From a virus (taxonomy: Duplodnaviria; Heunggongvirae; Uroviricota; Caudoviricetes), in IMG/VR virus record IMGVR_UViG_2917408641_000004: 44,025 bases of DNA; one strand, written 5' to 3'. The notes beneath the pieces are model-generated. The model made no database searches. It was given only the letters and a program-made list of their open reading frames with translations, and was not told the origin of the DNA. The position numbers were made by a program, and so were the translations under genes. This document shows, one piece after another, positions 4,601 to 30,639 of the stretch (position 1 is the first letter of the stretch; the number at the start of each line of letters is the position of its first letter).

Positions 4601-5102
4601 TATCGCGTCCTCAACAATGAATTTTGTGATGCAGTGCCTGGTGCCTCCAGGTGACGTTAACCAGTTAACAATTAACGCCGGATACAGAGAATCCACCCAT
4701 AACACTGTTTTTGGTTTTAACTGTTCCGCGTGCGCTTAGCCGCATTCACCGCATCACAAAATTCACTTTAAAAACGGCGGCAGAGCAGTCACGGAGTAAA
4801 ACTGATACCGCCAAACGTCACCAGAAAATTGATAACAGAGGGCGTTGCAGCGGGGTTGTCACTTAAGCGTATGGTCAACCTGACAACTCGGTGTCCTCAA
4901 CGGGGAAGGAATAACCCCGCCATACTTACCGCCGCGCCATTTCGCGGGTTGCCACAACCGGAAGCGCACGGTCGAATTAAATTTAACGACACCGTACAGT
5001 GAGACGAACTTCGCCGTGCGCTTTCGTGTTGTGTGCCTGCTTTTAACCACGTCAGGCGAGGTGGTATCCTTCTTATCCCGAATAACCAAGAAGGAAATCT
5101 AT

Positions 5103-5303
5103 ATGACTAAAGAAGAATTTGTCTCTTATATTTTTGATAAAACGGTTGAAATGTATGCCGCTACTTACGGGTCCTGTAATCCTCTGAATAAACCAGAGGG
5201 GAAAGATGATTTCGACAAAATTTACCGCTTCTTGGAGGACCGCTATATCAAAAGGTTAGAGGACGCAGGGATCAAATCCCCAGTGAAGTCACCATTGTCC
5301 TGA
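5103..5303 (+). CDS. Small hypothetical protein
   Basis: 66 aa from ATG 5103 with SD AAGGAA; transcribed opposite to the flanking early genes. Confidence 0.45.
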   Translation: MTKEEFVSYIFDKTVEMYAATYGSCNPLNKPEGKDDFDKIYRFLEDRYIKRLEDAGIKSPVKSPLS

Positions 5304-5366
5304 GAACTTGCAGGACGTCATGATCGTAACTTCCATCCAAACCGCGACGGCAAATTGCTTCTCGTA

Positions 5367-5636
5367 TTACCGGAAGCAGTTCGCTGGAAATCTCGGTGAT
5401 ATTTCACCTGATAATACGCCTGGCTCAAGTGAGAATATTGGTGAACTTACGCTCTTGGTCTCGACAGTTTCAGAGTCAGTGCCAACATTATAAAGCTCAA
5501 CGAAAGCGGTCTTGATTTTCCGGGCCAGATCTTTTGCTGGCTCGCTTGCAATATCTTTCCCGATTTCTCGCAGCACAGAATGCAATGTATGAGCTGCTGT
5601 TTTCTGTACATCAGACGGTAAATCTTTAAATTCCAT
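5367..5636 (-). CDS. Small hypothetical early protein
   Basis: 89 aa from ATG at 5636 preceded by GAGG; overlaps stop of upstream gene. Confidence 0.45.
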   Translation of the reverse strand: MEFKDLPSDVQKTAAHTLHSVLREIGKDIASEPAKDLARKIKTAFVELYNVGTDSETVETKSVSSPIFSLEPGVLSGEISPRFPANCFR

Positions 5637-5647
5637 CGTCAGCCTCA

Positions 5648-5800
5648 TCAGTCAGTGTTTCTGGCTAACCAGCAACGCGCGCCAGATTCGGTTTTAAACG
5701 TTTTGCTTTTGGTATATGTCATCGCGGTGAACGTACCGTCCTGGTTGGGGAACACGCCACATACCAGAGATTCGCTGTTGCCAAGATCGATAGTATCCAT
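5648..5800 (-). CDS. Small hypothetical early protein
   Basis: 50 aa from ATG at 5800 preceded by GAGG. Confidence 0.4.
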   Translation of the reverse strand: MDTIDLGNSESLVCGVFPNQDGTFTAMTYTKSKTFKTESGARCWLARNTD

Positions 5801-5966
5801 GCTGACCTCATTTCCCCTTAACGCCGGGGTAGCGGAACTGTTTGCTGAGAACACCGTGCGGTGTGTTGATGCAAACAAGATTAGCTATGACTAACATATT
5901 GGTCAAGTGATTTTGTATGTTATGACTAACATAATTAATGTAGTAAAAGATAACTCATTGATGATG

Positions 5967-6374
5967 TTATCTTTTATTTGTCCGCTGACGGGCTTTTAGT
6001 AATTCTTCAAAGAGTTTATTGAAGTTTTTTACTCGAGCTCGCATTTCGGCGAGCTGGGTATCCTGTTCTGATTCTGGCAGTGCATTAAACAGCTCAAGGA
6101 GCTCTAGTTCTTTGGGAGATAAGGCAACTGGCTTCTCAACAGGTGGTGTTGGTTGCTTGTCTTCATCGCCAAATAGAATCCATGTTGGTGAGCATTGCAA
6201 TACTTTGCTGAGGGCAAAAAGGTTCTTCCCTGTAGGTTCACTATCATCCCGTTCCCATTGTGATACAGACACATGGGAGATTTTCAGGGCTTTAGCAAGA
6301 GACCTTTGGGTGTGTTTGAGGTTTTTCCGACGATACCTAATGCGTTCGCCGATAGTTAAATTTTTTGTATCCAT
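5967..6374 (-). CDS. Prophage repressor, HTH XRE family (RacR/CI-like, no S24 peptidase domain)
   Basis: 135 aa; N-terminal helix-turn-helix (QRSLAKALKISHVSVSQWER); divergently arranged with a cro-like gene across an operator-like palindromic intergenic region. Confidence 0.8.
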   Translation of the reverse strand: MDTKNLTIGERIRYRRKNLKHTQRSLAKALKISHVSVSQWERDDSEPTGKNLFALSKVLQCSPTWILFGDEDKQPTPPVEKPVALSPKELELLELFNALPESEQDTQLAEMRARVKNFNKLFEELLKARQRTNKR

Positions 6375-6457
6375 AGTTAGCTAATGCTAAATCGTATTGA
6401 CTATGTTTTTGTTAACATCTATTTTGTTAGTTATAACTAACAATCAAGGTGTTTTAA
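6375..6457. promoter_or_regulatory. Divergent promoter/operator region of the immunity switch
   Basis: 83-bp intergenic region between repressor and cro-like starts; perfect 20-bp palindrome TTGTTAGTTATAACTAACAA at 6424-6443 plus shorter palindromes TTAGCTAA and TGTTAACA; TTGACT -35-like hexamer at 6397. Confidence 0.5.
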
Positions 6458-6688
6458 ATGCTTAAAACTGACGCTCTTTTGTATTTCGGTTCAAAAACAA
6501 AACTTGCACAAGCAGCTGGTATTCGTTTGGCTTCGCTTTATAGCTGGAAAGGGGATTTAGTTCCCGAAGGTCGCGCGATGCGTCTACAGGAGGCATCTGG
6601 CGGGGAGCTTCAGTATGACCCCAAAGTTTATGACGAATATCGTAAGACGAAGCGGGCGGGGCGGTTGAACAATGAAAATCACTCCTGA
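6458..6688 (+). CDS. Cro/YdaS-like HTH regulator
   Basis: 76 aa; SD AAGGTG upstream; HTH-like segment KLAQAAGIRLASLYSW; divergent from repressor as in Rac racR-ydaS. Confidence 0.7.
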   Translation: MLKTDALLYFGSKTKLAQAAGIRLASLYSWKGDLVPEGRAMRLQEASGGELQYDPKVYDEYRKTKRAGRLNNENHS

Positions 6689-8602: not shown

Positions 8603-8832
8603 GTACATCGGCTACCATTCTCGACATGTGCTGTGGCAGTCGCATGCTCTGGTTCGATAAGAATGACGAATGGTCGATATTTAGCGATATCAGGAAAGAG
8701 GAACATTCGCTATGTGATGGACGTCACCCGATTATTAATCCCGACATTATCGCTGATTTTCGTGCGCTGCCGTGGTTGTCTGCTTTGCATCAAAAGCAGA
8801 CATTACCAGATTTAGACATCTGTTTCCGATAG
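8600..8832 (+). CDS. Small ORF with SAM-methyltransferase motif I-like segment (possible gene fragment)
   Basis: About 77 aa from GTG 8600 (SD GGAGG upstream); segment [13 protein letters not shown] resembles MTase motif I but the protein is far too short to be a complete methyltransferase. Confidence 0.3.
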
Positions 8833-8864
8833 CCCGTTCTGATGCTACACTTTTTGCTATTTTC

Positions 8865-9551
8865 ATGAACCTCATAAACACATTTATGACTGTTGCTGAT
8901 TTCAAACGCCCCAAATTGGAGCTCCCAAACGGGGCAAAAAAACTATTACTGCACTCTTGCTGTGCTCCATGTTCCGGTGAAGTGATGGAGGCGCTTCAGG
9001 CCTCGGGAATCGACTACACCATCTTTTTCTACAACCCGAACATTCATCCTCAGAAAGAGTATTTAATTCGTAAGGATGAGAATATTCGCTTTGCTAAACA
9101 ACACGGCGTGCCATTTATTGATGCTGATTACGACACAGACAACTGGTTTGAGCGAGCCAAAGGAATGGAATGGGAGCCTGAACGAGGGATCCGTTGTACC
9201 ATGTGTTTTGACATGCGTTTTGAGCGGACTGCACTGTATGCCGCTGAAAATGGTTTCAGTGTGATCAGTAGCTCACTGGGCATTTCACGCTGGAAAAATA
9301 TGCAGCAGGTTAACGACTGTGGACGGCGAGCCGTCGCGCATTATCCGGGCATGGTGTACTGGGATTATAACTGGCGAAAACAGGGCGGCTCTTCCCGCAT
9401 GATTGAAATCAGCAAGCGCGAACAATTCTATCAGCAGGAATATTGTGGCTGCGTGTATTCACTGCGCGATACCAATCTACACCGCAAATCTCAGGGACGC
9501 CCTCTAATCAAAATTGGTCAACTGCACTACGGTAAAGAAGGACAGGAATGA
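8865..9551 (+). CDS. queH: Epoxyqueuosine reductase QueH family protein (DUF208)
   Basis: Cysteine motifs [19 protein letters not shown] and QEYCGCVYS characteristic of QueH; ATG at 8865 chosen because the upstream in-frame extension from 8772 is non-conserved. Confidence 0.75.
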
Positions 9552-9672: not shown

Positions 9673-10163
9673 GAAATTAGAGGAAATCTTGCAGCCATGA
9701 TATGGCTTAAAATAACGTTTGATTATTTTACCTGCTGTTTGTCCCTGGTTTAAAGTCGGTTGTCTGATTTGATTACGCGCAACTGACGCTTACGTATTGA
9801 AGTAACGAGCACGAAGACACATATTTATCAGTGCCTGTATACGTCAAGAGCAGGAGATTTATGTGCTGGTTCTCAAATGCACGCTGGCTATTGTGGCTGT
9901 AATGGCAATTTATTGTCTTGTTATTGTTCTTATGGATCACCTTTCTGATTGATTTCATATTGGCGAGGTAACGGTAGTTAAGTAGAATGGCTGCGGGTGC
10001 TTGAGGCTATCTGCCTCGGGCATGAACACCAACGGCAGATAGAGAAAAGCCCCAGTTAACATTACGCGTCCTGCAAGACGCTTAACATTAATCTGAGGCC
10101 AATTTCATGCTAGACACATGTAGGTTAGCCTCTTACGTGCCGAAAGGCAAGGAGAAGCAGGCT

Positions 10164-10319
10164 ATGAAGCAGCAAAAGGCGATGTTAATCGCCCTGATCG
10201 TCATCTGTTTAACCGTCATAGTGACGGCACTGGTAACGAGGAAAGACCTCTGCGAGGTACGAATCCGAACCGGCCAGACGGAGGTCGCTGTCTTCACAGC
10301 TTACGAACCTGAGGAGTAA
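10164..10319 (+). CDS. hokD: Hok/Gef family type I toxin (HokD/RelF-like)
   Basis: 51-aa product MKQQKAMLIALIVICLTVIVTALVTRKDLCEVRIRTGQTEVAVFTAYEPEE: single TM helix plus conserved Hok C-terminus; SD AAGGAG upstream; 3' hairpins and terminator downstream as in hok mRNAs. Confidence 0.85.
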   Translation: MKQQKAMLIALIVICLTVIVTALVTRKDLCEVRIRTGQTEVAVFTAYEPEE

Positions 10320-10535: not shown

Positions 10536-10772
10536 ATGATGAACATCGAAGAACTGCGTAAAATTTTTTGTGAAGATGGCCTCTATGCTGTGTGCGTTGA
10601 AAATGGAAATCTTGTTAGTCATTACCGCATTATGTGTTTGCGAAAGAATGGGGCTGCGTTAATTAATTTTGTGGATGGTCGAGTGACAGACGGATTTATC
10701 TTGCGCGAAGGTGAGTTTGTCACTTCATTACAGGCACTGAAAGAGATCGGAATAAAAGCAGGCTTTTCGTAA
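10536..10772 (+). CDS. Rem-like small protein, 3' end replaced by IS66-family insertion
   Basis: 78-aa ORF whose last codon and stop are supplied by the IS end; removing the IS and one TSD copy restores an 83-aa ORF ending ..GFSAFAEE, the size I recall for Qin Rem; family call by synteny. Confidence 0.5.
   Translation: MMNIEELRKIFCEDGLYAVCVENGNLVSHYRIMCLRKNGAALINFVDGRVTDGFILREGEFVTSLQALKEIGIKAGFS
10761..10768. repeat. 8-bp target-site duplication of IS66-family element (left copy; right copy 14906-14913)
   Basis: GGCTTTTC directly flanks both imperfect terminal inverted repeats. Confidence 0.8.
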
Positions 10773-11121
10773 CCGGCTCATTTAAACCGTCTGGTCTGTT
10801 TCCTCCGGCTCTACAAAAATAATGTCCATCATTTTTAATGGACACTATCGTATGAAACACCGGACCTGGATCACTGAAGCTTTACGTCTTCACTTTGAAG
10901 AACATTTACCCCGGGTTGTGGCCGGGCGTCGCCTGGGTGTACCAAAATCAACAGTTTGTAGTATGTTCGTGCGCTTTCGGAGAGCTGGCCTTTCGTGGCC
11001 TTTGCCCGCAGGCATGTCGGAGCAGGAACTTGATGCCTGCCTTTACGGACAATTTTCCACGGTACCAGTCGTACGTCCTGAAAGCACCGTTATATCCGAA
11101 GCCCCCGTGGTAAAAAAACGT

Positions 11122-11133
11122 CCCCGGCGGCCC
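11122..11133. repeat. 12-bp target-site duplication of IS4 (left copy; right copy 12560-12571)
   Basis: CCCCGGCGGCCC present immediately outside both IS4 ends. Confidence 0.85.
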
Positions 11134-12559
11134 TAATGCCAGTCAGTTAAGCAACTGACTGGCTCTTTTTCGGGGCTGTGGGGTATTTCCAGGGCCTCTC
11201 CTTTACCACTCTCGGGAAGGCCCTTTCCCTTCTTGTCGGTAATTTCACAAGTTGTCCCATACTTGCAAGATCGCGCATCAGCTCCGGTATACGTCCCGGT
11301 GAAGCGCCCTGCAATGTCATCAGCATTCTCATCACCATTCCGCATGATTCTGAGAAACTCAGTTGATTCGGCCAGTAACCTTTCAGATGTTCTGCCATTT
11401 TAATCATCTGATATCTCACCAGATTATAAGCCAGTAAGACACCCCACAGCTCTTGCTCCACAAGCTCCGGCTTTTTACTTCTCAGCGTCAGCCTGCTCAG
11501 TTGCATCGTCTGTTTTATCTCCCTGTATCCCAGTTCGATTTCCCAGCGATGACTGTACAGATCCGCCATTTCTCCTCCGGGGAAGCGCATGGCGTCCGTC
11601 ATCGACGTCAGCAGATGGCAGACTTTTCCTTTGCGCGTCACGGTCAGCAGGCGGGCTGTCACCTCATTTCCCAGCCCCGGCCACTTTTTTCGTGCCTGCG
11701 GGCTGGTTTTCAGCTTCACCAGATGATCGCCTTTACCCAGTTTTCTGATCTCTTCATATTGCGCTCCCTTTCTGAGAGGGATCATCCAGTGGCGGTGTTC
11801 TCCCGCCTGGCTCCAGGCATTTAACAGTCCCAGTGAGTAATAACCTTTATCCATTAACGTCAGGGTGTTATCGCCGGTTTGTTCTATAAGTTGCTCAGCA
11901 AGCTCATTTTCGCTGTTCTTCATCGTGCCGAAGGCTGCAGCCGTCAGCAGATGGCTGGTCAGTTCCATCTGGCAGACCATTTTGACCTGCGGGTAGAGCG
12001 CCGGGTTCCCGGCATGTGTCTGGCGGGGGAAGGCTGCATCGTTCTCTGGTGTATCCGGTGTGCGCCAGAACACACCATCGATGGCCAGCAGGGTCAGGCC
12101 GCACCAGTGCGGATGCGGCGTGGCGTTATGCCAGAGCTGCGCTGTTTTCGTGAACACGCGGCGGACAGCCTCACTTCCCAGACGCTGGCGGGCCTGAATA
12201 ACGGCACTGGGGGCAACGAAGGGGCGATTGCCCGGCAGCATGATGTCCAGGCGATTCACAATCTGGTGAAGAGGTTCTTTACGCTCAAGCGCCATGCCAA
12301 CAATACACCAGACCATCATTTCGAGGGGAAGACGGCGCTTGCGTAGCGTTACAGTACCTGATTCGGCAAGGCAACGAGAGATGAGTTCGGGGTCGAGGTA
12401 ATCCCCCAGAGAAGTCAGTGGGTTACGCAGAGAATCGTAACGGGATACCAAATCAAGGGCCTGTCCAATGAGCATAAAAAAATCCGGAAACGAGTGAGCG
12501 TTTCCGGATTCTTACACAGCCACTGGATCGGTCAACTGATCCTTAACTGATCGGCATTA
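11134..12559 (-). mobile_element. IS4, complete copy
   Basis: 1426 bp, matching the known IS4 length; terminal inverted repeats TAATGCC(A/G)..TCAGTTAAG; single 442-aa transposase; 12-bp TSD within the expected 11-13 bp range. Confidence 0.9.
11147..12475 (-). CDS. insG: IS4 transposase
   Basis: 442-aa ORF filling the IS4 element; IS4-family DDE transposase. Confidence 0.9.
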
Positions 12560-12571
12560 CCCCGGCGGCCC
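12560..12571. repeat. 12-bp target-site duplication of IS4 (right copy)
   Basis: CCCCGGCGGCCC, identical to 11122-11133. Confidence 0.85.
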
Positions 12572-12936
12572 AACTTCCCTTATGAGTTTAAAATCGCCTT
12601 AGTGGAGCAGTCACTGCAGCCCGGAGCCTGTGTGGCGCAGATCGCCCGGGAAAACGGAATCAACGATAACCTGCTCTTCAACTGGCGCCATCAATACCGG
12701 AAAGGTGGCCTGCTGCCTTCCGGAAAAAATATGCCGGCACTGCTTCCCGTGACGTTAACGCCGGAGCCGGATAATAAAATCCCGGCCCCCGCACAGGAAC
12801 CAGAGCAGATAAATACACCGTCCGACAGTCTGTGTTGTGAGCTGGTTCTGCCGGCCGGAACTCTCAGGCTTAAAGGTAAACTGACGCCGGCGTTATTACA
12901 GACACTTATCCGCGAAATAAAAGGGAGCAGCCACTG

Positions 12937-13284
12937 ATGATATCTCTCCCTGCCGGTTCGCGTATCTGGCTGGTTGCAGGTATCACCGATATGCGAAATG
13001 GCTTTAACGGCCTGGCATCAAAAGTTCAGAACGTCCTGAAGGATGACCCGTTCTCCGGACACCTGTTCATCTTCCGCGGACGCCGGGGTGACCAGATAAA
13101 AGTGTTGTGGGCTGACAGTGACGGACTGTGCCTCTTCACCAAACGCCTGGAGCGGGGCCGCTTCGTCTGGCCAGTCACCCGTGACGGCAAGGTGCACCTT
13201 ACTCCGGCTCAGTTATCCATGCTTCCTGAAGGTATCAACTGGAAGCACCCGAAACGAACGGAACGCGCTGGAATCCGCATATAA
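12937..13284 (+). CDS. tnpB: IS66-family TnpB (Orf2)
   Basis: 115 aa; start overlaps tnpA stop (ATGA); typical IS66 Orf2 sequence (..IWLVAGITDMRNGFNGLA..). Confidence 0.85.
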   Translation: MISLPAGSRIWLVAGITDMRNGFNGLASKVQNVLKDDPFSGHLFIFRGRRGDQIKVLWADSDGLCLFTKRLERGRFVWPVTRDGKVHLTPAQLSMLPEGINWKHPKRTERAGIRI

Positions 13285-13303
13285 CCCGTTGTAAAGTGAG
13301 GAT

Positions 13304-14875
13304 ATGGACACCTCACTTGCTCATGAGAACGCCCGCCTGCGGGCACTGTTGCAGACGCAACAGGACACCATCCGCCAGATGGCTGAATACAACCGCCTGC
13401 TCTCACAGCGGGTGGCGGCTTATGCTTCCGAAATCAACCGGCTGAAGGCGCTGGTTGCGAAACTGCAACGTATGCAGTTCGGTAAAAGCTCAGAAAAACT
13501 TCGTGCAAAAACCGAACGGCAGATACAGGAAGCTCAGGAGCGAATCAGCGCACTTCAGGAAGAAATGGCGGAAACGCTGGGTGAGCAATATGACCCGGTA
13601 CTGCCATCCGCCCTGCGCCAGTCTTCAGCCCGTAAACCGTTACCGGCCTCACTTCCCCGTGAAACCCGGGTTATCCGGCCGGAAGAGGAATGCTGTCCTG
13701 CCTGTGGTGGTGAACTCAGTTCTCTGGGATGTGATGTGTCAGAGCAACTGGAGCTTATCAGCAGCGCCTTTAAGGTTATCGAAACACAACGTCCGAAACT
13801 GGCCTGTTGCCGGTGCGACCATATCGTGCAGGCACCAGTACCTTCAAAACCCATTGCACGCAGTTATGCCGGAGCGGGGCTTCTGGCCCATGTTGTCACC
13901 GGGAAATATGCAGACCATCTGCCGTTATACCGCCAGTCAGAAATATACCGTCGTCAGGGAGTGGAGCTGAGCCGTGCCACACTGGGGCGCTGGACCGGTG
14001 CCGTTGCTGAACTGCTGGAGCCGCTGTATGACGTCCTGCGCCAGTATGTGCTGATGCCCGGTAAAGTCCATGCCGATGATATCCCCGTCCCGGTCCAGGA
14101 GCCGGGCAGCGGTAAAACCCGGACAGCCCGGCTGTGGGTCTACGTCCGTGATGACCGCAACGCCGGTTCACAGATGCCCCCGGCGGTCTGGTTCGCGTAC
14201 AGTCCGGACCGGAAAGGTATCCATCCACAAAATCACCTGGCCGGTTACAGCGGTGTGCTTCAGGCCGATGCTTACGGTGGTTACCGGGCGTTATACGAAT
14301 CCGGCAGAATAACGGAAGCCGCGTGTATGGCTCATGCCCGGAGAAAAATCCACGATGTGCATGCAAGAGCGCCCACCGACATCACCACGGAAGCCCTGCA
14401 GCGTATCGGTGAACTGTATGCTATCGAGGCAGAGGTCCGGGGCTGTTCAGCAGAACAGCGTCTGGCGGCAAGAAAAGCCAGAGCCGCGCCACTGATGCAG
14501 TCACTGTATGACTGGATACAGCAACAGATGAAAACACTGTCGCGTCACTCAGATACGGCAAAAGCGTTCGCATACCTGCTGAAACAGTGGGATGCACTGA
14601 ACGTGTACTGCAGTAATGGCTGGGTGGAAATCGACAACAACATCGCAGAGAACGCCTTACGGGGAGTGGCCGTAGGCCGGAAAAACTGGATGTTCGCGGG
14701 TTCCGACAGCGGTGGTGAACATGCGGCGGTGTTGTACTCGCTGATCGGCACATGCCGTCTGAACAATGTGGAGCCAGAAAAGTGGCTGCGTTACGTCATT
14801 GAACATATCCAGGACTGGCCGGCAAACCGGGTACGCGATCTGTTGCCCTGGAAAGTTGATCTGAGCTCTCAGTAA
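13304..14875 (+). CDS. tnpC: IS66-family transposase TnpC
   Basis: 523 aa; N-terminal coiled-coil/leucine zipper, CxxC..CxxC zinc motif (CPACGG..CCRCDH) and DDE-type C-terminal region characteristic of IS66 transposases. Confidence 0.85.
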
Positions 14876-14905
14876 ATATCAATACGGTTCTGACGAGCCG
14901 CTTAC

Positions 14906-14913
14906 GGCTTTTC
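14906..14913. repeat. 8-bp target-site duplication of IS66-family element (right copy)
   Basis: GGCTTTTC, identical to 10761-10768. Confidence 0.8.
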
Positions 14914-19422: not shown

Positions 19423-19722
19423 AAAAATTCCTTAATACTGATAACTTGGCGCACTATACACACGTTCCTGAAGAAAGCTATAGTTTTTTGATGGGGTTGA
19501 AGATGGCTGGATGTCTAAAATAAACATTGCTTCATATGTTCAACTATGCGTTAATGATTGCGTCGGTTTGAAGAACAGACGATATACGAAGTAGTTTACT
19601 AAAGCAGTTCTCATTTCAGGTGTTATTCACTTATTCCTTCTTTGAGTCTCTCCAATTAAGTACGAAGTCGTTTCTGTTATACAAGCCATTTATGCCGAAA
19701 GGCTCAAGTTAAGGAATGTAGA

Positions 19723-19938
19723 ATGTCAAATAAAATGACTGGTTTAGTAAAATGGTTTAACGCTGATAAAGGTTTTGGCTTTATTTCTCCTGTTGATGGT
19801 AGTAAAGATGTGTTTGTGCATTTTTCTGCGATTCAGAATGATAATTTTCGAACCTTATTTGAAGGTCAAAAGGTTACCTTCTCTGTAGAGAGTGGTGCTA
19901 AAGGTCCTGCAGCAGCAAATGTCATAATTACTGATTAA
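19723..19938 (+). CDS. cspB: Cold-shock protein CspB
   Basis: 71-aa product [38 protein letters not shown]..; CspA-family RNP motifs. Confidence 0.8.
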
Positions 19939-20221
19939 AATTAATAGTTTGTCTGTATACGATAACGAAGAAGGCTGATGCCTGAGTGGAGATACAGACA
20001 GAGTGGTGAATATTGGATCTCTTTAATAAATAGTAAGGAGATCCAATACATGAAACAATGACCAGCATATTTGGCAATAACTTAATCAGGAAAAGTATGC
20101 TAACCATTGTGGTGAAGTGCAGGTTTGCTGCATGAATAGTTTTACAGCAGAAGCTAACTGCTAGCATAGCAAAACAAAGTGCGTAAGTGGATGACTCCCA
20201 CAAAAAGCACCACAATATTAA

Positions 20222-22811: not shown

Positions 22812-23174
22812 ATTAATATTAAATCGGATTATTTTTAGCGCTGAATGTGAAATTTAAATAAAAAGGACTCTTCCATGAGTCAAAATCCTTGAAATCTTAA
22901 GGGTAAGATAAAAGGTCATTAGACAGAATGACACGTTTTATTAATAAATAAAGCTATTGTTTCATTCGTGTGTTTTTCTTTACAAAAGTAATCCTTGCTA
23001 TGGTTGGTTAATCATGCGTTAATGGTGTTCTGGTTTGTTACAAAATTATCTGAAGCAGTCATTGTTATAATTTTATTATTTGTACCTCTTGAGATTTCCT
23101 TGTTGGTTTTTCTCTCTGATATTTTTTTTCGGACCATTCTGCCCAAGGGCTAACTTCTTCAAAAGGTAATAATG

Positions 23175-23387
23175 ATGTCTAACAAAATGACTGGTTTAGT
23201 GAAATGGTTTAACCCTGAAAAAGGTTTTGGTTTCATCACGCCGAAAGATGGTAGCAAAGATGTGTTTGTCCATTTCTCAGCTATTCAGAGCAACGATTTC
23301 AAAACGTTAACTGAGAATCAGGAAGTCGAATTTGGTATTGAGAACGGACCTAAAGGCCCCGCGGCTGTTCATGTTGTGGCACTTTGA
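23175..23387 (+). CDS. cspI: Cold-shock protein CspI
   Basis: 70-aa product [70 protein letters not shown]. Confidence 0.8.
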
Positions 23388-23594
23388 GGTAGAAAATATT
23401 ACAAACCATATTCACTTTAGATGCCCGTGTTGCCATGGTTCTCAGTATAGAACATCATCTTTTGATGTTTCTGACAGGAATCCTTTCGGGGCAAAATGTA
23501 TCTTTTGTAAATCAATGATGATTACATTTGATAATATTTCACAATACTTAAATGTTAGCCGTCTGTCGTTAGATTTAAGAAAGTGAAAATGAAG

Positions 23595-25120: not shown

Positions 25121-25298
25121 AAAAGGCTAGTTTTTGCATTTCCATGGCGGCGGCAGCATGTTTGGTAATTTATTGATAATTAAAAGTTATTTCTCTTTTC
25201 ACCTGTACAATATTTTTTTCTCCCTGTCATTAGACCAGTTTACAATTAATTGAAATATATAAATAAACATGATTTTCACCTGCCAGATGGAGTTGCTT

Positions 25299-25826
25299 AT
25301 GTCAAATGTGAGCGGGATCGGTGATGCTTATTACTGGAGTGTTTTTAAAATCGCTGAGGCCTTTGGGCTTCACCGGGACACAGTAAAAAAACGGCTTCTC
25401 GCGGCCAACACTCCTGTGGCTGCGACTGTCAGGGGGAACCCCGTTTACGCCCTGCAGCATGTCGGGCCAGCCCTGTTTAGTGTGAAGCATGAGGCAGCAG
25501 ACTCTGTTCATGATCCATCCCGTATGGAGCCGAAAGAGAGAAAGGACTGGTACCAGTCTGAAAATGAAAGGATCAAGCTGGAAAAGGAGCAGCGAAAACT
25601 CATCCCCGTTGATGAAGTAGTCATCGTCTATTCGTCCATGAGAAAGGCTGTCGTCCAGGTTCTGGAGACAATTCCGGATGTTCTTGAACGCGATTGCGCC
25701 CTGACTCCTCAGGCCGTCGGCGTTGTACAGCAGGCAATTGATGACCTGCGATACACTCTTCAGGAAAAATCCTACGAGGCTTGTGCTGCTGAATTAATTC
25801 CTGATGAGGAAGGAGAGAGTCTCTAG
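25299..25826 (+). CDS. Terminase small subunit
   Basis: 175 aa from ATG 25299 (SD GGAG); N-terminal HTH-like DNA-binding region; directly upstream of terminase large subunit and downstream of cos. Confidence 0.6.
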   Translation: MSNVSGIGDAYYWSVFKIAEAFGLHRDTVKKRLLAANTPVAATVRGNPVYALQHVGPALFSVKHEAADSVHDPSRMEPKERKDWYQSENERIKLEKEQRKLIPVDEVVIVYSSMRKAVVQVLETIPDVLERDCALTPQAVGVVQQAIDDLRYTLQEKSYEACAAELIPDEEGESL

Positions 25827-25834
25827 GAGGAATA

Positions 25835-27934
25835 ATGGGTTTTTCATCAGCCCGAAATTTGGGAAGGGACATATCGGCAGGATTTTCCCCACCACGTCGC
25901 ATGCCGATTTCGGAGGCTGTAAAAAAATTCATGCGTGTTCCCAAGGGGGCTGGTAACTCGGTGCCATGGGATCCTGAACTGACACCCTACATCATTGAGC
26001 CCATGAACTGCCTGGCATCGCGTGAATACGATGCGGTGATTTTTGTTGGTCCTGCGCGAACAGGGAAGACCATTGGTCTGATCGATGGATGGATTGTCTA
26101 TACCATCGTTTGCGATCCTTCGGACATGCTCGTTGTGCAGATGACCGAAGATAAGGCCCGCGAGCATTCTAAAAAGCGCCTCGACAGAACGTTCAGAAGC
26201 AGTGCGGCGGTAAAGAAAAGAATGAGTCCACGTCGTAACGACAATAATGTCCATGATAAGACGTTCAGGGATGGCTCGTTCCTTAAAATTGGTTGGCCCT
26301 CGGTCAACATTATGTCGTCGTCGGATTACCGGTTTGTCGCCTTAACCGATTACGACCGTTTTCCGGAGAATATCGACAGCGAGGGTGATGGTTTCTCCCT
26401 GGCCTCAAAACGTACCACCACATTTATGTCCGCCGGGATGACTCTGGTGGAGAGCTCGCCGGGACGTGACATCTGCGACAGCAAATGGCGACGTAAGTCG
26501 CCTCATGAAGCGCCACCGACGACTGGTATTCTTTCCCTTTACAATCGTGGTGACCGCCGCCGCTGGTACTGGTCATGTCCGCACTGCGGTGAATATTTTC
26601 AGCCAGCCATGGATGCCATGACCGGCTACCGTAATGAACCGGATCCCTTTAAAGCCAGTGAGGCGGCGTATCTACTTTGCCCGCACTGCAGCGGCATTAT
26701 CACTGCGGAGAAAAAGCGTGAGCTCAATAGTGCAGGAGTCTGGTTGCGTGAAGGTCAGGTCATTGATCGTAACGGCAACGTTTCCGGTGAACCGCGCCGC
26801 TCCCGTATCGCCAGTTTCTGGATGGAAGGGCCAGCTGCTGCGTATCAGACCTGGGCGCAACTGGTTTACAAATTACTGACTGCAGAACAGGAGTATGAAG
26901 CGACAGGAAGCGAAGAAACACTCAGGGCGGTTATCAACACCGACTGGGGATTGCCTTATCTTCCTCGTGCCAGCATGGAGCAACGAAAAAGTGAACTGCT
27001 TGAGCAGCGGGCAGAGCCAGTTCCTTCCCGCAGTGTGCCGGATGGCATTAATTTCCTTGTGGCGACAGTGGATGTGCAGGCGGGACGTCATCGCCGTTTT
27101 GTGGTTCAGGTAACGGGCTATGGCAGTCGTGGCGAACGCTGGATTATTGATCGTTACAACATCACGCAGTCATTGCGCAGTGACTGCGACGGGGAGAGCC
27201 AGCGAATTGATCCGGCCAGCTATCCAGAAGACTGGGATGTCCTGCTGACGGATGTTTTTCATAAAAGCTGGCCGCTGGCCTCCGATCCTTCTCAACAAAT
27301 GCGACTGATGGCAATGGCGGTGGACTCCGGCGGTGAAGACGGGGTCACTGATAATGCCTATAAATTCTGGCGTCGTTGCCGTCGTGATGGCCTTGGTAAA
27401 CGTATTTACCTGTTTAAGGGTGACAGCATCCGGCGCGCAAAACTGATCAGCCGTACATTCCCTGATAACACCGGACGAACGGGCCGCCGGGCGCAGGCCG
27501 CAGGTGATGTGCCGCTCTGGCTTCTTCAGACGGATGCCCTGAAAGACCGGGTGAATAACGCGTTATGGCGTGACTCGCCAGGTCCAGGCTATGTGCATTT
27601 CCCTGACTGGCTGGGGAGCTGGTTTTACGACGAACTGACGTATGAAGAGCGGAGCAGTGACGGGAAATGGAGTAAGCCGGGTCGCGGTGCCAACGAAGCT
27701 TTTGACCTGATGGTGTATGCCGAGGCTCTGGTCATTCTGCATGGATACGAAAAGATCCGCTGGCCGGATGCACCGGAGTGGGCGAGCCGGGAAACCTGGC
27801 TGGAGTGTGTCCAGGACAGTACCGAACCGTCATCCTCACCGGAACCGGTATCCACGCCTATTAAAAAACAAAAACGGAAGAAAACAGTAACTGACGATGT
27901 TAACCCCTGGCTGACTTCCGGAGGATGGTTATGA
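25835..27934 (+). CDS. Terminase large subunit (lambda gpA-like)
   Basis: 699 aa; SD AGGAGG; Walker A motif VGPARTGKT; gpA-family architecture. Confidence 0.9.
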   Translation: MGFSSARNLGRDISAGFSPPRRMPISEAVKKFMRVPKGAGNSVPWDPELTPYIIEPMNCLASREYDAVIFVGPARTGKTIGLIDGWIVYTIVCDPSDMLVVQMTEDKAREHSKKRLDRTFRSSAAVKKRMSPRRNDNNVHDKTFRDGSFLKIGWPSVNIMSSSDYRFVALTDYDRFPENIDSEGDGFSLASKRTTTFMSAGMTLVESSPGRDICDSKWRRKSPHEAPPTTGILSLYNRGDRRRWYWSCPHCGEYFQPAMDAMTGYRNEPDPFKASEAAYLLCPHCSGIITAEKKRELNSAGVWLREGQVIDRNGNVSGEPRRSRIASFWMEGPAAAYQTWAQLVYKLLTAEQEYEATGSEETLRAVINTDWGLPYLPRASMEQRKSELLEQRAEPVPSRSVPDGINFLVATVDVQAGRHRRFVVQVTGYGSRGERWIIDRYNITQSLRSDCDGESQRIDPASYPEDWDVLLTDVFHKSWPLASDPSQQMRLMAMAVDSGGEDGVTDNAYKFWRRCRRDGLGKRIYLFKGDSIRRAKLISRTFPDNTGRTGRRAQAAGDVPLWLLQTDALKDRVNNALWRDSPGPGYVHFPDWLGSWFYDELTYEERSSDGKWSKPGRGANEAFDLMVYAEALVILHGYEKIRWPDAPEWASRETWLECVQDSTEPSSSPEPVSTPIKKQKRKKTVTDDVNPWLTSGGWL

Positions 27935-28143
27935 ACCAGAATGATATCGAAGCCATGATTCAGCGTTATACGGAAGCTGAAATGGCGGTGCTGGACGGAA
28001 AATCCGTCACTTTTAATGGTCAGCAGATGACCATGGAAAACTTATCTGAGATCCGGCAGGGGCGGCAGGAGTGGGAGCGCCGCCTTGCGGCTCTGATTAC
28101 ACGACGACGGGGGCATCCCGGGTACCGGCTGGCGAGGTTCTGA
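27931..28143 (+). CDS. W: Head-tail joining protein W-like
   Basis: 70 aa; ATGA overlap with terminase stop; lambda gpW-like size and C-terminal RRRG motif. Confidence 0.7.
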   Translation: MNQNDIEAMIQRYTEAEMAVLDGKSVTFNGQQMTMENLSEIRQGRQEWERRLAALITRRRGHPGYRLARF

Positions 28144-28667
28144 TGGCAATTCTTGATGATGTGATTGGCGTTTTTTCACCAGGATGGAAAGCGGCAAGGC
28201 TGCGTTCCCGTGCGGTGATCCAGGCTTATGAGGCCGTAAAAACGACGCGGACACACAAAGCCCGACGGGAGAACCGAACTGCCGACCAGTTAAGCCAGTA
28301 CGGGGCCGTGTCGTTACGTGAGCAGGCCCGTTACCTTGATAACAACCACGATCTGGTCATTGGTGTATTTGACAAGCTGGAAGAACGGGTGGTGGGGAAA
28401 AGACCGGTGATGCCGTGGATTGACCCTGTTAAGGAGGCTGAGGCCTGGAAAATTCAGATTCGTGGTGGAGCGGCGACAGAATCAGACTGGGTACGTGCAG
28501 GTGGTCGTAATCCAGATGATGTCAAACGTCGGCGCAAGGCCGAAATTGATGAAAACCGCAAGCTGGATCTGGTATTTGATACCGATCCGGCCAGTGATAA
28601 AGGAGGCAGCAGTGCCGCAACGAAACGACAGGAGCCGCAGCACACCGACGACCAGTCCGAAGAATAA
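28143..28667 (+). pseudogene. Portal protein remnant with large internal in-frame deletion
   Basis: Only 174 aa where a portal of about 500 aa is expected; N-terminal part (..LREQARYLDNNHDLVIGVFDKLEERVVG) and C-terminal part (..PWIDPVKEAEAWKIQIRGGAATESDW..) align with the N- and C-terminal regions of lambda gpB; TGATG coupling to W. Confidence 0.55.
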
Positions 28668-28680
28668 TTCCTGGTTCAGG

Positions 28681-30639
28681 ATGCAGGCAGGTCACCAGAG
28701 TGACGCGGATATTTATATTTATGACGAGATTGGTTTCTGGGGTGTTACGGCGAAGCAGTTTATCAGTGATCTGAATGCACTGGGCGATATCACCCACATT
28801 AATCTCCATATTAATTCACCGGGTGGCGATGTCTTTGAAGGCATCGCCATTTTTAATGCACTGAAAACACATGGTGCGTCCATTACCGTTTATGTCGACG
28901 GTGTGGCGGCGTCAATGGCGTCGGTCATTGCGATGGTGGGAAACCCGGTCATTATGCCGGAAAACTCCTTCATGATGATTCATAAACCATTTGGATTTAC
29001 GGGCGGTGATGCGGAGGACATGCGCACCTATGCCGACCTGCTCGATAAAGTTGAGGCGGTTCTGTTACCCGCTTATGCACAGAAAACCGGGAAAACCACC
29101 GATGAAATTGCTGCCATGCTGGCGGATGAGACCTGGATGTCCGGTGCCGAATGTCTGGCACAGGGATTTGCTGATCAGGTGACACCAGCCGTTAAGGCAA
29201 TGGCATGTATTCAGTCAAAACGTACAGAGGAATTTAAAAAGATGCCGGAATCCATTCGAAACATGATTACTCCGCCACGCAACAGTGCTCCACGCGTACA
29301 GGATGATGAACCTGCAGCCTCCCGGACGCCAGTGCAGGCAGCAGCACCCGTGGTGGATGAAAACAGTATCCGTGCGCAGGTACTGGCAGAGCAAAAAGCG
29401 CGTGTAAACGGTATTAATGATCTGTTTGCCATGTTTGGCGGGCGTTATCAGACGCTGCAGGCCCAGTGTCTTGCCGATCCTGAATGTTCGCTGGAGCAGG
29501 CCCGTGAAAAGCTGTTGAACGAGATGGGGCGCGAGTCCACGCCATCCAATAAAAATACCCCGGCTCATATTTATGCCGGTAACGGTAATTTTGTGGGGGA
29601 CGGGATTCGCCAGGCGCTGATGGCGCGTGCCGGATTTGAAAAAACCGAACGTGATAATGTCTACAACGGGATGACCCTGCGTGAATATGCCCGTATGTCA
29701 CTAACTGAACGGGGTATTGGGGTTTCCGGTTATAACCCGATGCAGATGGTCGGTGCGGCGTTCACACACAGTACGTCTGACTTCGGTAATATTCTGCTGG
29801 ATGTTGCGAACAAAGCCATTCTGCAGGGCTGGGAAGATGCCCCTGAAACCTATGAACAGTGGACGCGGAAAGGTCAGTTGTCTGATTTTAAAATTGCCCA
29901 TCGTGTGGGTATGGGGGGCTTCAGTGCTCTGCGTCAGGTGCGTGAAGGGGCGGAATATAAATACGTCACCACCGGAGATAAACAGGCCACTATTGCACTG
30001 GCGACCTATGGCGAGCTGTTCAGTATCACCCGTCAGGCCATTATCAATGATGATCTGAATATGCTGACCGATGTCCCGATGAAACTGGGCCGTGCGGCGA
30101 AATCCACTATTGCCGATCTGGTTTATGCCATTCTGACGTCTAACCCGAAAATCTCCACAGATAATGTAAGTCTGTTCGATAAAGCGAAACATGCAAACGT
30201 ACTGGAGAGCGCTGCAATGGACGTGGCATCGCTGGATAAAGCCCGCCAGTTGATGCGCGTTCAGAAAGAGGGGGAGCGTCATCTGAATATTCGTCCTGCG
30301 TTCGTACTGGTACCGACGGCGATGGAGTCTGTTGCTAACCAGGTCATTCGCTCCTCAAGTGTCAAGGGGGCTGACATTAACGCCGGTATTATTAACCCGG
30401 TGAAAGATTTTGCGACCGTTATTGCAGAGCCTCGTCTTGATGATAACAGCCAGACCACCTTCTACCTGGCTGCGTCAAAAGGCTCCGATACGATTGAAGT
30501 GGCTTATCTCAACGGTGTGGATACGCTATATATTGATCAGATGGAGGGCTTCAGTGTGGATGGCGTGACAACGAAAGTGCGTATTGACGCCGGTGTCGCG
30601 CCAGTTGATCACCGCGGTCTGGTGAAATGTACGGCGTAA
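28681..30639 (+). CDS. Fused prohead protease (ClpP-like) - scaffold - major capsid protein
   Basis: 652 aa; N-terminal ClpP/S14 protease fold (YIYDEIGFWGV..INSPGGDVFEGIAIFNAL..SMASVIAMVG..MIHKP), central coiled-coil-like region, C-terminal HK97-fold-type capsid region; single uninterrupted frame. Confidence 0.75.
   Translation: MQAGHQSDADIYIYDEIGFWGVTAKQFISDLNALGDITHINLHINSPGGDVFEGIAIFNALKTHGASITVYVDGVAASMASVIAMVGNPVIMPENSFMMIHKPFGFTGGDAEDMRTYADLLDKVEAVLLPAYAQKTGKTTDEIAAMLADETWMSGAECLAQGFADQVTPAVKAMACIQSKRTEEFKKMPESIRNMITPPRNSAPRVQDDEPAASRTPVQAAAPVVDENSIRAQVLAEQKARVNGINDLFAMFGGRYQTLQAQCLADPECSLEQAREKLLNEMGRESTPSNKNTPAHIYAGNGNFVGDGIRQALMARAGFEKTERDNVYNGMTLREYARMSLTERGIGVSGYNPMQMVGAAFTHSTSDFGNILLDVANKAILQGWEDAPETYEQWTRKGQLSDFKIAHRVGMGGFSALRQVREGAEYKYVTTGDKQATIALATYGELFSITRQAIINDDLNMLTDVPMKLGRAAKSTIADLVYAILTSNPKISTDNVSLFDKAKHANVLESAAMDVASLDKARQLMRVQKEGERHLNIRPAFVLVPTAMESVANQVIRSSSVKGADINAGIINPVKDFATVIAEPRLDDNSQTTFYLAASKGSDTIEVAYLNGVDTLYIDQMEGFSVDGVTTKVRIDAGVAPVDHRGLVKCTA

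Follow-up and report, generated by a model that had tools for sequence, protein, structure and literature searches.

In tailed phages the head needs a dodecameric portal at one vertex, both for DNA packaging and for joining to the neck and tail (PMC10721106). The published domain limits of the lambda portal protein, gpB, place the wing at residues 24-249 and 368-452, the stem at 250-279 and 343-367, the clip at 280-342 and the crown at 453-511; in the tunnel loop, Gln379 contacts DNA (PMC10721106). The consequences of portal loss in a lambdoid prophage have been followed in a B (portal) deletion derivative of an Stx2dact prophage: induction, replication and phage-DNA release were unimpaired (attP rose 209-fold, compared with 235-fold in the wild type), but DNase then cut the attP signal more than 23-fold, compared with less than 1.5-fold in the wild type, indicating that packaging had been lost (PMC6328086).

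The closest described relatives of the locus considered here are lambdoid phages such as mEp460, cdtI, Ayreon, HannyBb and Tritos, whose 502-aa portals (AFM76041.1 in mEp460) are encoded between a W-like gene, itself preceded by the large terminase gene, and a fused protease-major capsid gene. The DNA analyzed (44,025 nt, IMG/VR record IMGVR_UViG_2917408641_000004; the whole of it is referred to below as the window) has the same arrangement, with an ORF of only 525 bp in the portal position. Our reading, to which we would assign a probability of about 90%, is that this ORF represents an inactivating in-frame portal deletion in a defective lambdoid prophage of the mEp460/cdtI/HannyBb type, in Escherichia marmotae. 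An initial annotation had described a 174-codon ORF between W and the protease-capsid gene and had taken it for a lambda-family portal with an in-frame internal deletion. Both points hold up: the ORF is present as described, and relative to intact 502-aa (1509-bp) portals it is missing exactly 984 bp (328 codons), its central two-thirds. The head genes and the parts of the remnant are as follows.

25287 to 25826, plus strand: small terminase gene (DUF1441), intact
25835 to 27934, plus strand: large terminase gene (GpA ATPase and nuclease), 699 aa, intact
27925 to 28143, plus strand: W-like head-tail adaptor gene (DUF6148, weak match), 72 aa, intact, 100% identical to HannyBb
28143 to 28667, plus strand: remnant portal ORF, ATG to TAA, 525 bp, 174 aa (WP_241482983.1)
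28143 to 28401, plus strand: 5' remnant, portal codons 1-86 and base 1 of codon 87, matching the portals of mEp460 and HannyBb at 100% aa identity
28401 to 28402, plus strand: deletion junction, portal nt 260-1243 (residues 87-415) absent, hybrid codon A/GA encoding Arg87
28402 to 28667, plus strand: 3' remnant, bases 2 and 3 of codon 415, then codons 416-502 with the stop
28612 to 30639, plus strand: ClpP-like prohead protease/major capsid fusion gene, GTG start after AAGGAGG, 675 aa, intact in the window

The remnant is interlocked with the genes on either side of it. The TGA of the W-like gene and the ATG of the remnant have one base in common (TGATG), and the last 56 nt of the remnant overlap the 5' start of the protease-capsid fusion gene, whose Shine-Dalgarno sequence (AAGGAGG, 28600-28606) and GTG start (28612) both lie within the 3' remnant.

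A megablast comparison of window positions 27500-29500 with 50,697 phage records found 16 phages (mEp460, cdtI, Ayreon, phi458, Tritos and HannyBb among them) that cover the whole query at 98.6-99.1% nucleotide identity. In 16 of 16, the 2001-nt query maps as two pieces over 2985 nt, and the extra DNA is inside the annotated portal gene. Further off, in phage record 1720a-02 (KF030445), the 3' part of the portal gene and the protease gene are 83% identical to the window at the nucleotide level; this record may be the phi-stx2dact phage of the portal-deletion study.

Base-level mapping of the junction used three intact references, mEp460 (L001), HannyBb (L005) and a prophage of E. coli S88 (L006), which are identical in sequence at both breakpoints and which all gave the same, single breakpoint solution. 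This is the alignment to full-length portals that had been proposed for defining the missing segment, and it sets the limits of that segment at portal nt 260-1243. The junction sequence quoted in the initial annotation, EERVVGKRPVMPWIDP, proved correct, and lies between 28401 and 28402. At this point AAC (Asn87) and GGA (Gly415) have been merged into the hybrid codon A/GA, creating the new Arg87, and the protein reads EERVVGK-R-PVMPWIDP. The proportions of the two ends had been estimated less well, at about 105 N-terminal and about 60 C-terminal aa: those retained are 86 N-terminal aa, Arg87 and 87 C-terminal aa. At the protein level each part matches phage portals at 100%, so the remnant is not a chance ORF. 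The full identity over 86 plus 87 residues, together with a gene order like that of the 16 phages, supports portal descent and makes the ORF, by origin, a PF05136 portal allele of the mEp460/cdtI lambdoid type.

Neither microhomology nor repeats were found at the breakpoints (0 bp, against the three intact references), and the deletion looks like a single illegitimate event, blunt and independent of homology. An imperfect AC[G/C]GG similarity at the breakpoints was considered as a possible cause; being one base out of register, it would yield a deletion of 985 bp and does not account for the event. Since one deletion in three keeps the frame by chance, the preserved frame is no evidence of selection.

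About 85% of the PF05136 (Phage_portal_2) domain has been removed by the deletion, and about one-sixth is left. In an intact homolog the profile scores 277 bits (residues 35-372, profile positions 3-354); in the remnant it scores 25.6 bits (residues 35-95, profile positions 3-62 of 354), below the gathering threshold of 32.9 bits. Lambda gpB belongs to the same Pfam family and is only a distant sequence relative. In a phmmer search against PDB sequences, residues 305-440 of the intact portal align to gpB residues 332-474 (PDB 8K38; E = 1e-4, 136 aa), with the right breakpoint (415/416) falling at about gpB 449/450, in a comparison that covers only residues ~305-489 of the intact portal and leaves the N-terminal breakpoint outside the structure alignment. 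In gpB terms, the C-terminal 87 aa of the remnant begin at about residue 450 and take in the last part of the wing and the crown. Taken together with the published domain limits, this alignment puts the stem, the clip and the tunnel-loop region, all present in gpB, within the deleted residues 87-415, along with most of the wing. On this evidence the remnant is a short N-terminal wing piece joined to the crown and the acidic C-terminal tail, with the join very close to the border between wing and crown. A single-sequence AlphaFold2 model of the 174-aa product has a pLDDT of 45.7 and a pTM of 0.18, too low to be informative. By its defining features (a sub-threshold profile score and the loss of stem, clip and tunnel loop), the remnant would be no functional PF05136 portal. 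It is possible that a stable product with some activity is made, the coupled start, the frame and the stop all being native.

The exact 174-aa protein has been deposited from Escherichia marmotae as WP_241482983.1, where it is annotated “hypothetical protein”; part of the value of the present analysis for annotation is that this entry can be named as a portal remnant. The identical allele is found on five contigs in separate assemblies (GCA_000807695.3, Logan SRR6001584 and SRR6001587, and a 4.67-Mb contig). Over the shared regions L003 matches the window at 100%, whereas L002 shows two substitutions and two runs of N against it, and L004 (SRR6001587) five substitutions and two 1-bp indels. 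A sequencing or assembly error with a collapsed region was also weighed as the origin of the short gene, solely because the deletion turned up in no other collection searched. It has next to no probability: the junction is identical in several separate assemblies, among which L004 carries SNPs elsewhere, and the breakpoints have no flanking repeats able to cause a collapse. In L004, a T missing at the equivalent of window position 29320 splits the protease-capsid gene into ORFs of 264 and 429 aa. Continued decay in a head module that had lost its use would account for this, as would an assembly error.

Outside these assemblies, the initial annotation had pointed to equally short portals in functional relatives as something to look for, and none came to light: all 16 of the closest phages carry a 1509-bp gene, and among 5,426 complete E. 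coli genomes the short allele occurs in none of the 1,897 that carry the gene, the criterion being a match over at least 80% of the short ORF. A 40-nt sequence spanning the junction had no match in GTDB species representatives, IMG/VR or JGI metagenomes; a positive control, the intact 40-mer at the left breakpoint, had 63 matches in IMG/VR. Since the allele is limited to a few near-identical E. marmotae assemblies, the deletion is best seen as a recent, lineage-restricted event, with no horizontal spread.

The closest overall relative of the prophage is HannyBb, with which it is collinear at 95.8-99.5% identity: the left end carries int and xis, followed by the early genes, Q, and the lysis, head and tail genes. 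Full length in comparison with HannyBb are, for the head, TerS, TerL, the W-like protein, the protease-capsid fusion, the decoration protein and a Gifsy-2-like protein; for the tail, Z, U, V, G, T, H, M, L, K, I and J; and, elsewhere, int, xis, exo, cII, O, a Ren-like gene, Q, holin, lysozyme and Rz. The possibility of a full-length portal encoded elsewhere in the prophage, also raised in the initial annotation, was followed up within the window, where neither a second portal (tblastn with the intact portal) nor a copy of the deleted 984 bp (blastn with the deleted segment) was found. A Pfam scan of the other large ORFs likewise returned no portal: what it recognized was integrase, exonuclease, a QueH-like protein, three transposases, DUF968/HNH, Q and J. 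In this gene-by-gene comparison, no essential gene of the window other than the portal gene is damaged.

Several other features of the window may be recorded here. The immunity region (5071-6560) contains a repressor gene (5967-6374, minus strand) and a cro-like gene with 57% and 71% aa identity to HannyBb, between flanks that are ~99% identical, pointing to a different immunity type on a near-identical backbone. An early-region ORF at 8772-9551 (plus strand) has a QueH epoxyqueuosine reductase domain (PF02677, 220 bits) and is 100% identical to an unannotated HannyBb protein. Rfam matches above the gathering score include a DicF sRNA (4775-4826, minus strand); a sok antitoxin RNA (9995-10169, plus strand), which adjoins a MokW/Hok-like ORF at 10107-10316; and two cspA thermoregulator leaders (19562-20001 and 23017-23433, both plus strand), each before a prophage cold-shock-protein gene. 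There are no tRNA genes in the window.

The prophage carries three insertion sequences.

10769 to 14905, no strand assigned: IS66-family element with GTAA... terminal inverted repeats and an 8-bp target duplication, GGCTTTTC
11147 to 12475, minus strand: IS4-family transposase gene, nested in the left part of the IS66-family element
42722 to 44025, minus strand: IS256/Mutator-family transposase element, starting 35 bp past the J stop and running off the window

The two copies of the target duplication of the IS66-family element are at 10761-10768 and 14906-14913, and its tnpA/B/C-like ORFs occupy 12602-14875. Relative to HannyBb, the IS66/IS4 composite interrupts the early (nin-like) region at a point past the replication genes and ahead of Q, where the IS66-family element cuts the final five codons off a small nin-region ORF. 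This insertion is a second sign of decay, and could be polar on late-gene activation. At the other end, the IS256-family element stands where HannyBb has its side-tail-fiber genes, none of which is present in the window. The suggestion in the initial annotation that the tail and lysis modules are intact accordingly stands for Z to J and for the lysis genes, all full length, and fails for the side-tail-fiber position, which the IS element has taken over. The 63 nt at 42720-42782 are 98% complementary to 12501-12563 in the IS66/IS4 cluster, so that a 30-kb segment including the entire late operon has inverted repeats on either side.

One alternative to a dead prophage is a dependent one, in which the near-identical portal of a sibling prophage or of a superinfecting relative complements the deletion in trans and particles are still made. 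Potential donors would not be scarce, as the portal gene family is very common in E. coli (the 1,897 of 5,426 genomes mentioned above, some with up to three copies, in six places), and all of the other morphogenetic genes of the element are intact. On the other hand, there is no second portal in the 44-kb window, the allele shows no sign of horizontal spread beyond a few near-identical assemblies, and the prophage has taken up IS insertions, with a further capsid-gene frameshift in a sister isolate. We regard complementation of this kind as improbable, and simple inactivation as the better description.

Broken portals are common in prophages of the mEp460/HannyBb head-module family. A homolog search with the remnant as query, which preferentially recovers in-frame alleles, returned only fragments of at most 304 aa and no full-length portals. 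Three of the alleles recovered are in Escherichia prophages with the same head-module type. P0003 (250 aa) is an independent in-frame portal deletion with both termini kept and its junction at a repeated TRPM motif. P0004 (219 aa; L007, 5345-6004) is another independent in-frame deletion that keeps both termini, in a prophage that also lacks G, T, H and M entirely and V in part. P0007 (199 aa; L008, 6001-6600, and also L009 and L010) is a W::portal fusion found in several genomes; L008 has in addition a 1213-aa fusion of tape measure and J (H::J), and L010 has a truncated protease gene.

In IMG/VR (loci L011-L073) the portal ORF could be read to its stop in 42 loci. It has the full 502 aa in 26 of these and 491 and 501 aa in two others; in the remaining 14 it is disrupted: six contigs share a 1-bp insertion that leaves 350 aa, and in the others homology is lost at nt 330, 560, 708 or 1335. 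The corresponding figure for the protease-capsid gene is 3 of 12, in a tally that is small, includes non-independent alleles, and draws on many loci that are cut or come from old drafts. The idea that inactivation in this prophage family falls preferentially on the portal was set aside, 14 of 42 being no clear excess over 3 of 12.

These alleles bear on a further possibility, that the remnant has acquired a new role, for example as a dominant-negative decoy poisoning portal-ring or procapsid assembly in related superinfecting phages, or that the element is kept as a headless tail and lysis (tailocin-like) module. It is somewhat in keeping with such a role that the reading frame survives together with its coupled start and its own stop, that portal deletions which are in frame and keep both termini have arisen independently elsewhere (P0003 and P0004, to which the W::portal fusion P0007 may be added), and that neither the tail genes (Z to J) nor the lysis genes are damaged. 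Other observations speak against it: an in-frame outcome has a one-in-three chance, and the search favors in-frame alleles; the portal shows no clear excess of disruption over the capsid gene in the IMG/VR relatives; the allele is very rare; and an IS element occupies the side-fiber position. The terminase, protease-capsid and decoration genes are also intact, and head genes ~99% identical to those of live phages imply that the deletion is recent rather than a shaped adaptation. Co-option in any of these forms is accordingly very unlikely, less likely still than complementation in trans. In its most specific version, the remnant, translationally coupled in the late operon, would be kept as a decoy that interferes with portal or procapsid assembly by superinfecting lambdoid phages; this, too, we would consider very doubtful. 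If the decoy reading were true, P0003, P0004 and P0007 would be convergent examples.

To return to inactivation, one 984-bp deletion took out codons 87-415, the frame being kept by chance, and the parts lost are those that form the dodecameric DNA channel and dock the terminase and the adaptor. On induction the prophage would be expected still to excise, replicate, express its late genes, build tails and lyse the cell. With no portal of its own, it should package no DNA into heads, and should produce no infectious, plaque-forming or transducing particles unless a compatible portal were supplied in trans. Portal function, and with it the ability to make DNA-filled heads, has almost certainly been lost, a conclusion drawn from the domain content removed and from the outcome of the published portal-deletion experiment. 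For E. marmotae, the element is probably a non-transmissible prophage that may still lyse its host on induction. The 44-kb element is likely to be scored as intact by prophage-prediction tools, yet is probably dead for particle production.

Among described systems, the mEp460-type phages are the nearest match to this element, their portals differing from the remnant in the presence of residues 87-415. The Stx2dact portal deletion offers the functional parallel, as portal loss in a lambdoid prophage of a like kind, and its phenotype, in which induction, replication and lysis persist while the DNA goes unencapsidated, is in effect the prediction for the present element; that mutant was engineered and tested in the laboratory, whereas the lesion described here is natural, partial and in frame, with a phenotype that is predicted. 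The prophages with other portal deletions, frameshifts and fusions (L007-L010 and IMG/VR L011-L073) show the same gene failing in other ways, and differ from the present element, in which the portal deletion is the sole essential-gene lesion seen.

Defective lambdoid prophages of E. coli that have decayed by deletion and IS insertion likewise combine an essential head-gene lesion with IS elements. The present element has what would be expected of such a prophage, namely a collinear gene set with an integrase, and an inactivating lesion in its only portal gene. In principle it teaches nothing beyond what is already understood of prophage decay, and it fits these well-known defective prophages as a case of ordinary decay. 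What is specific to it is the allele itself and the early stage at which the decay, with apparently one essential-gene lesion so far, has been caught.
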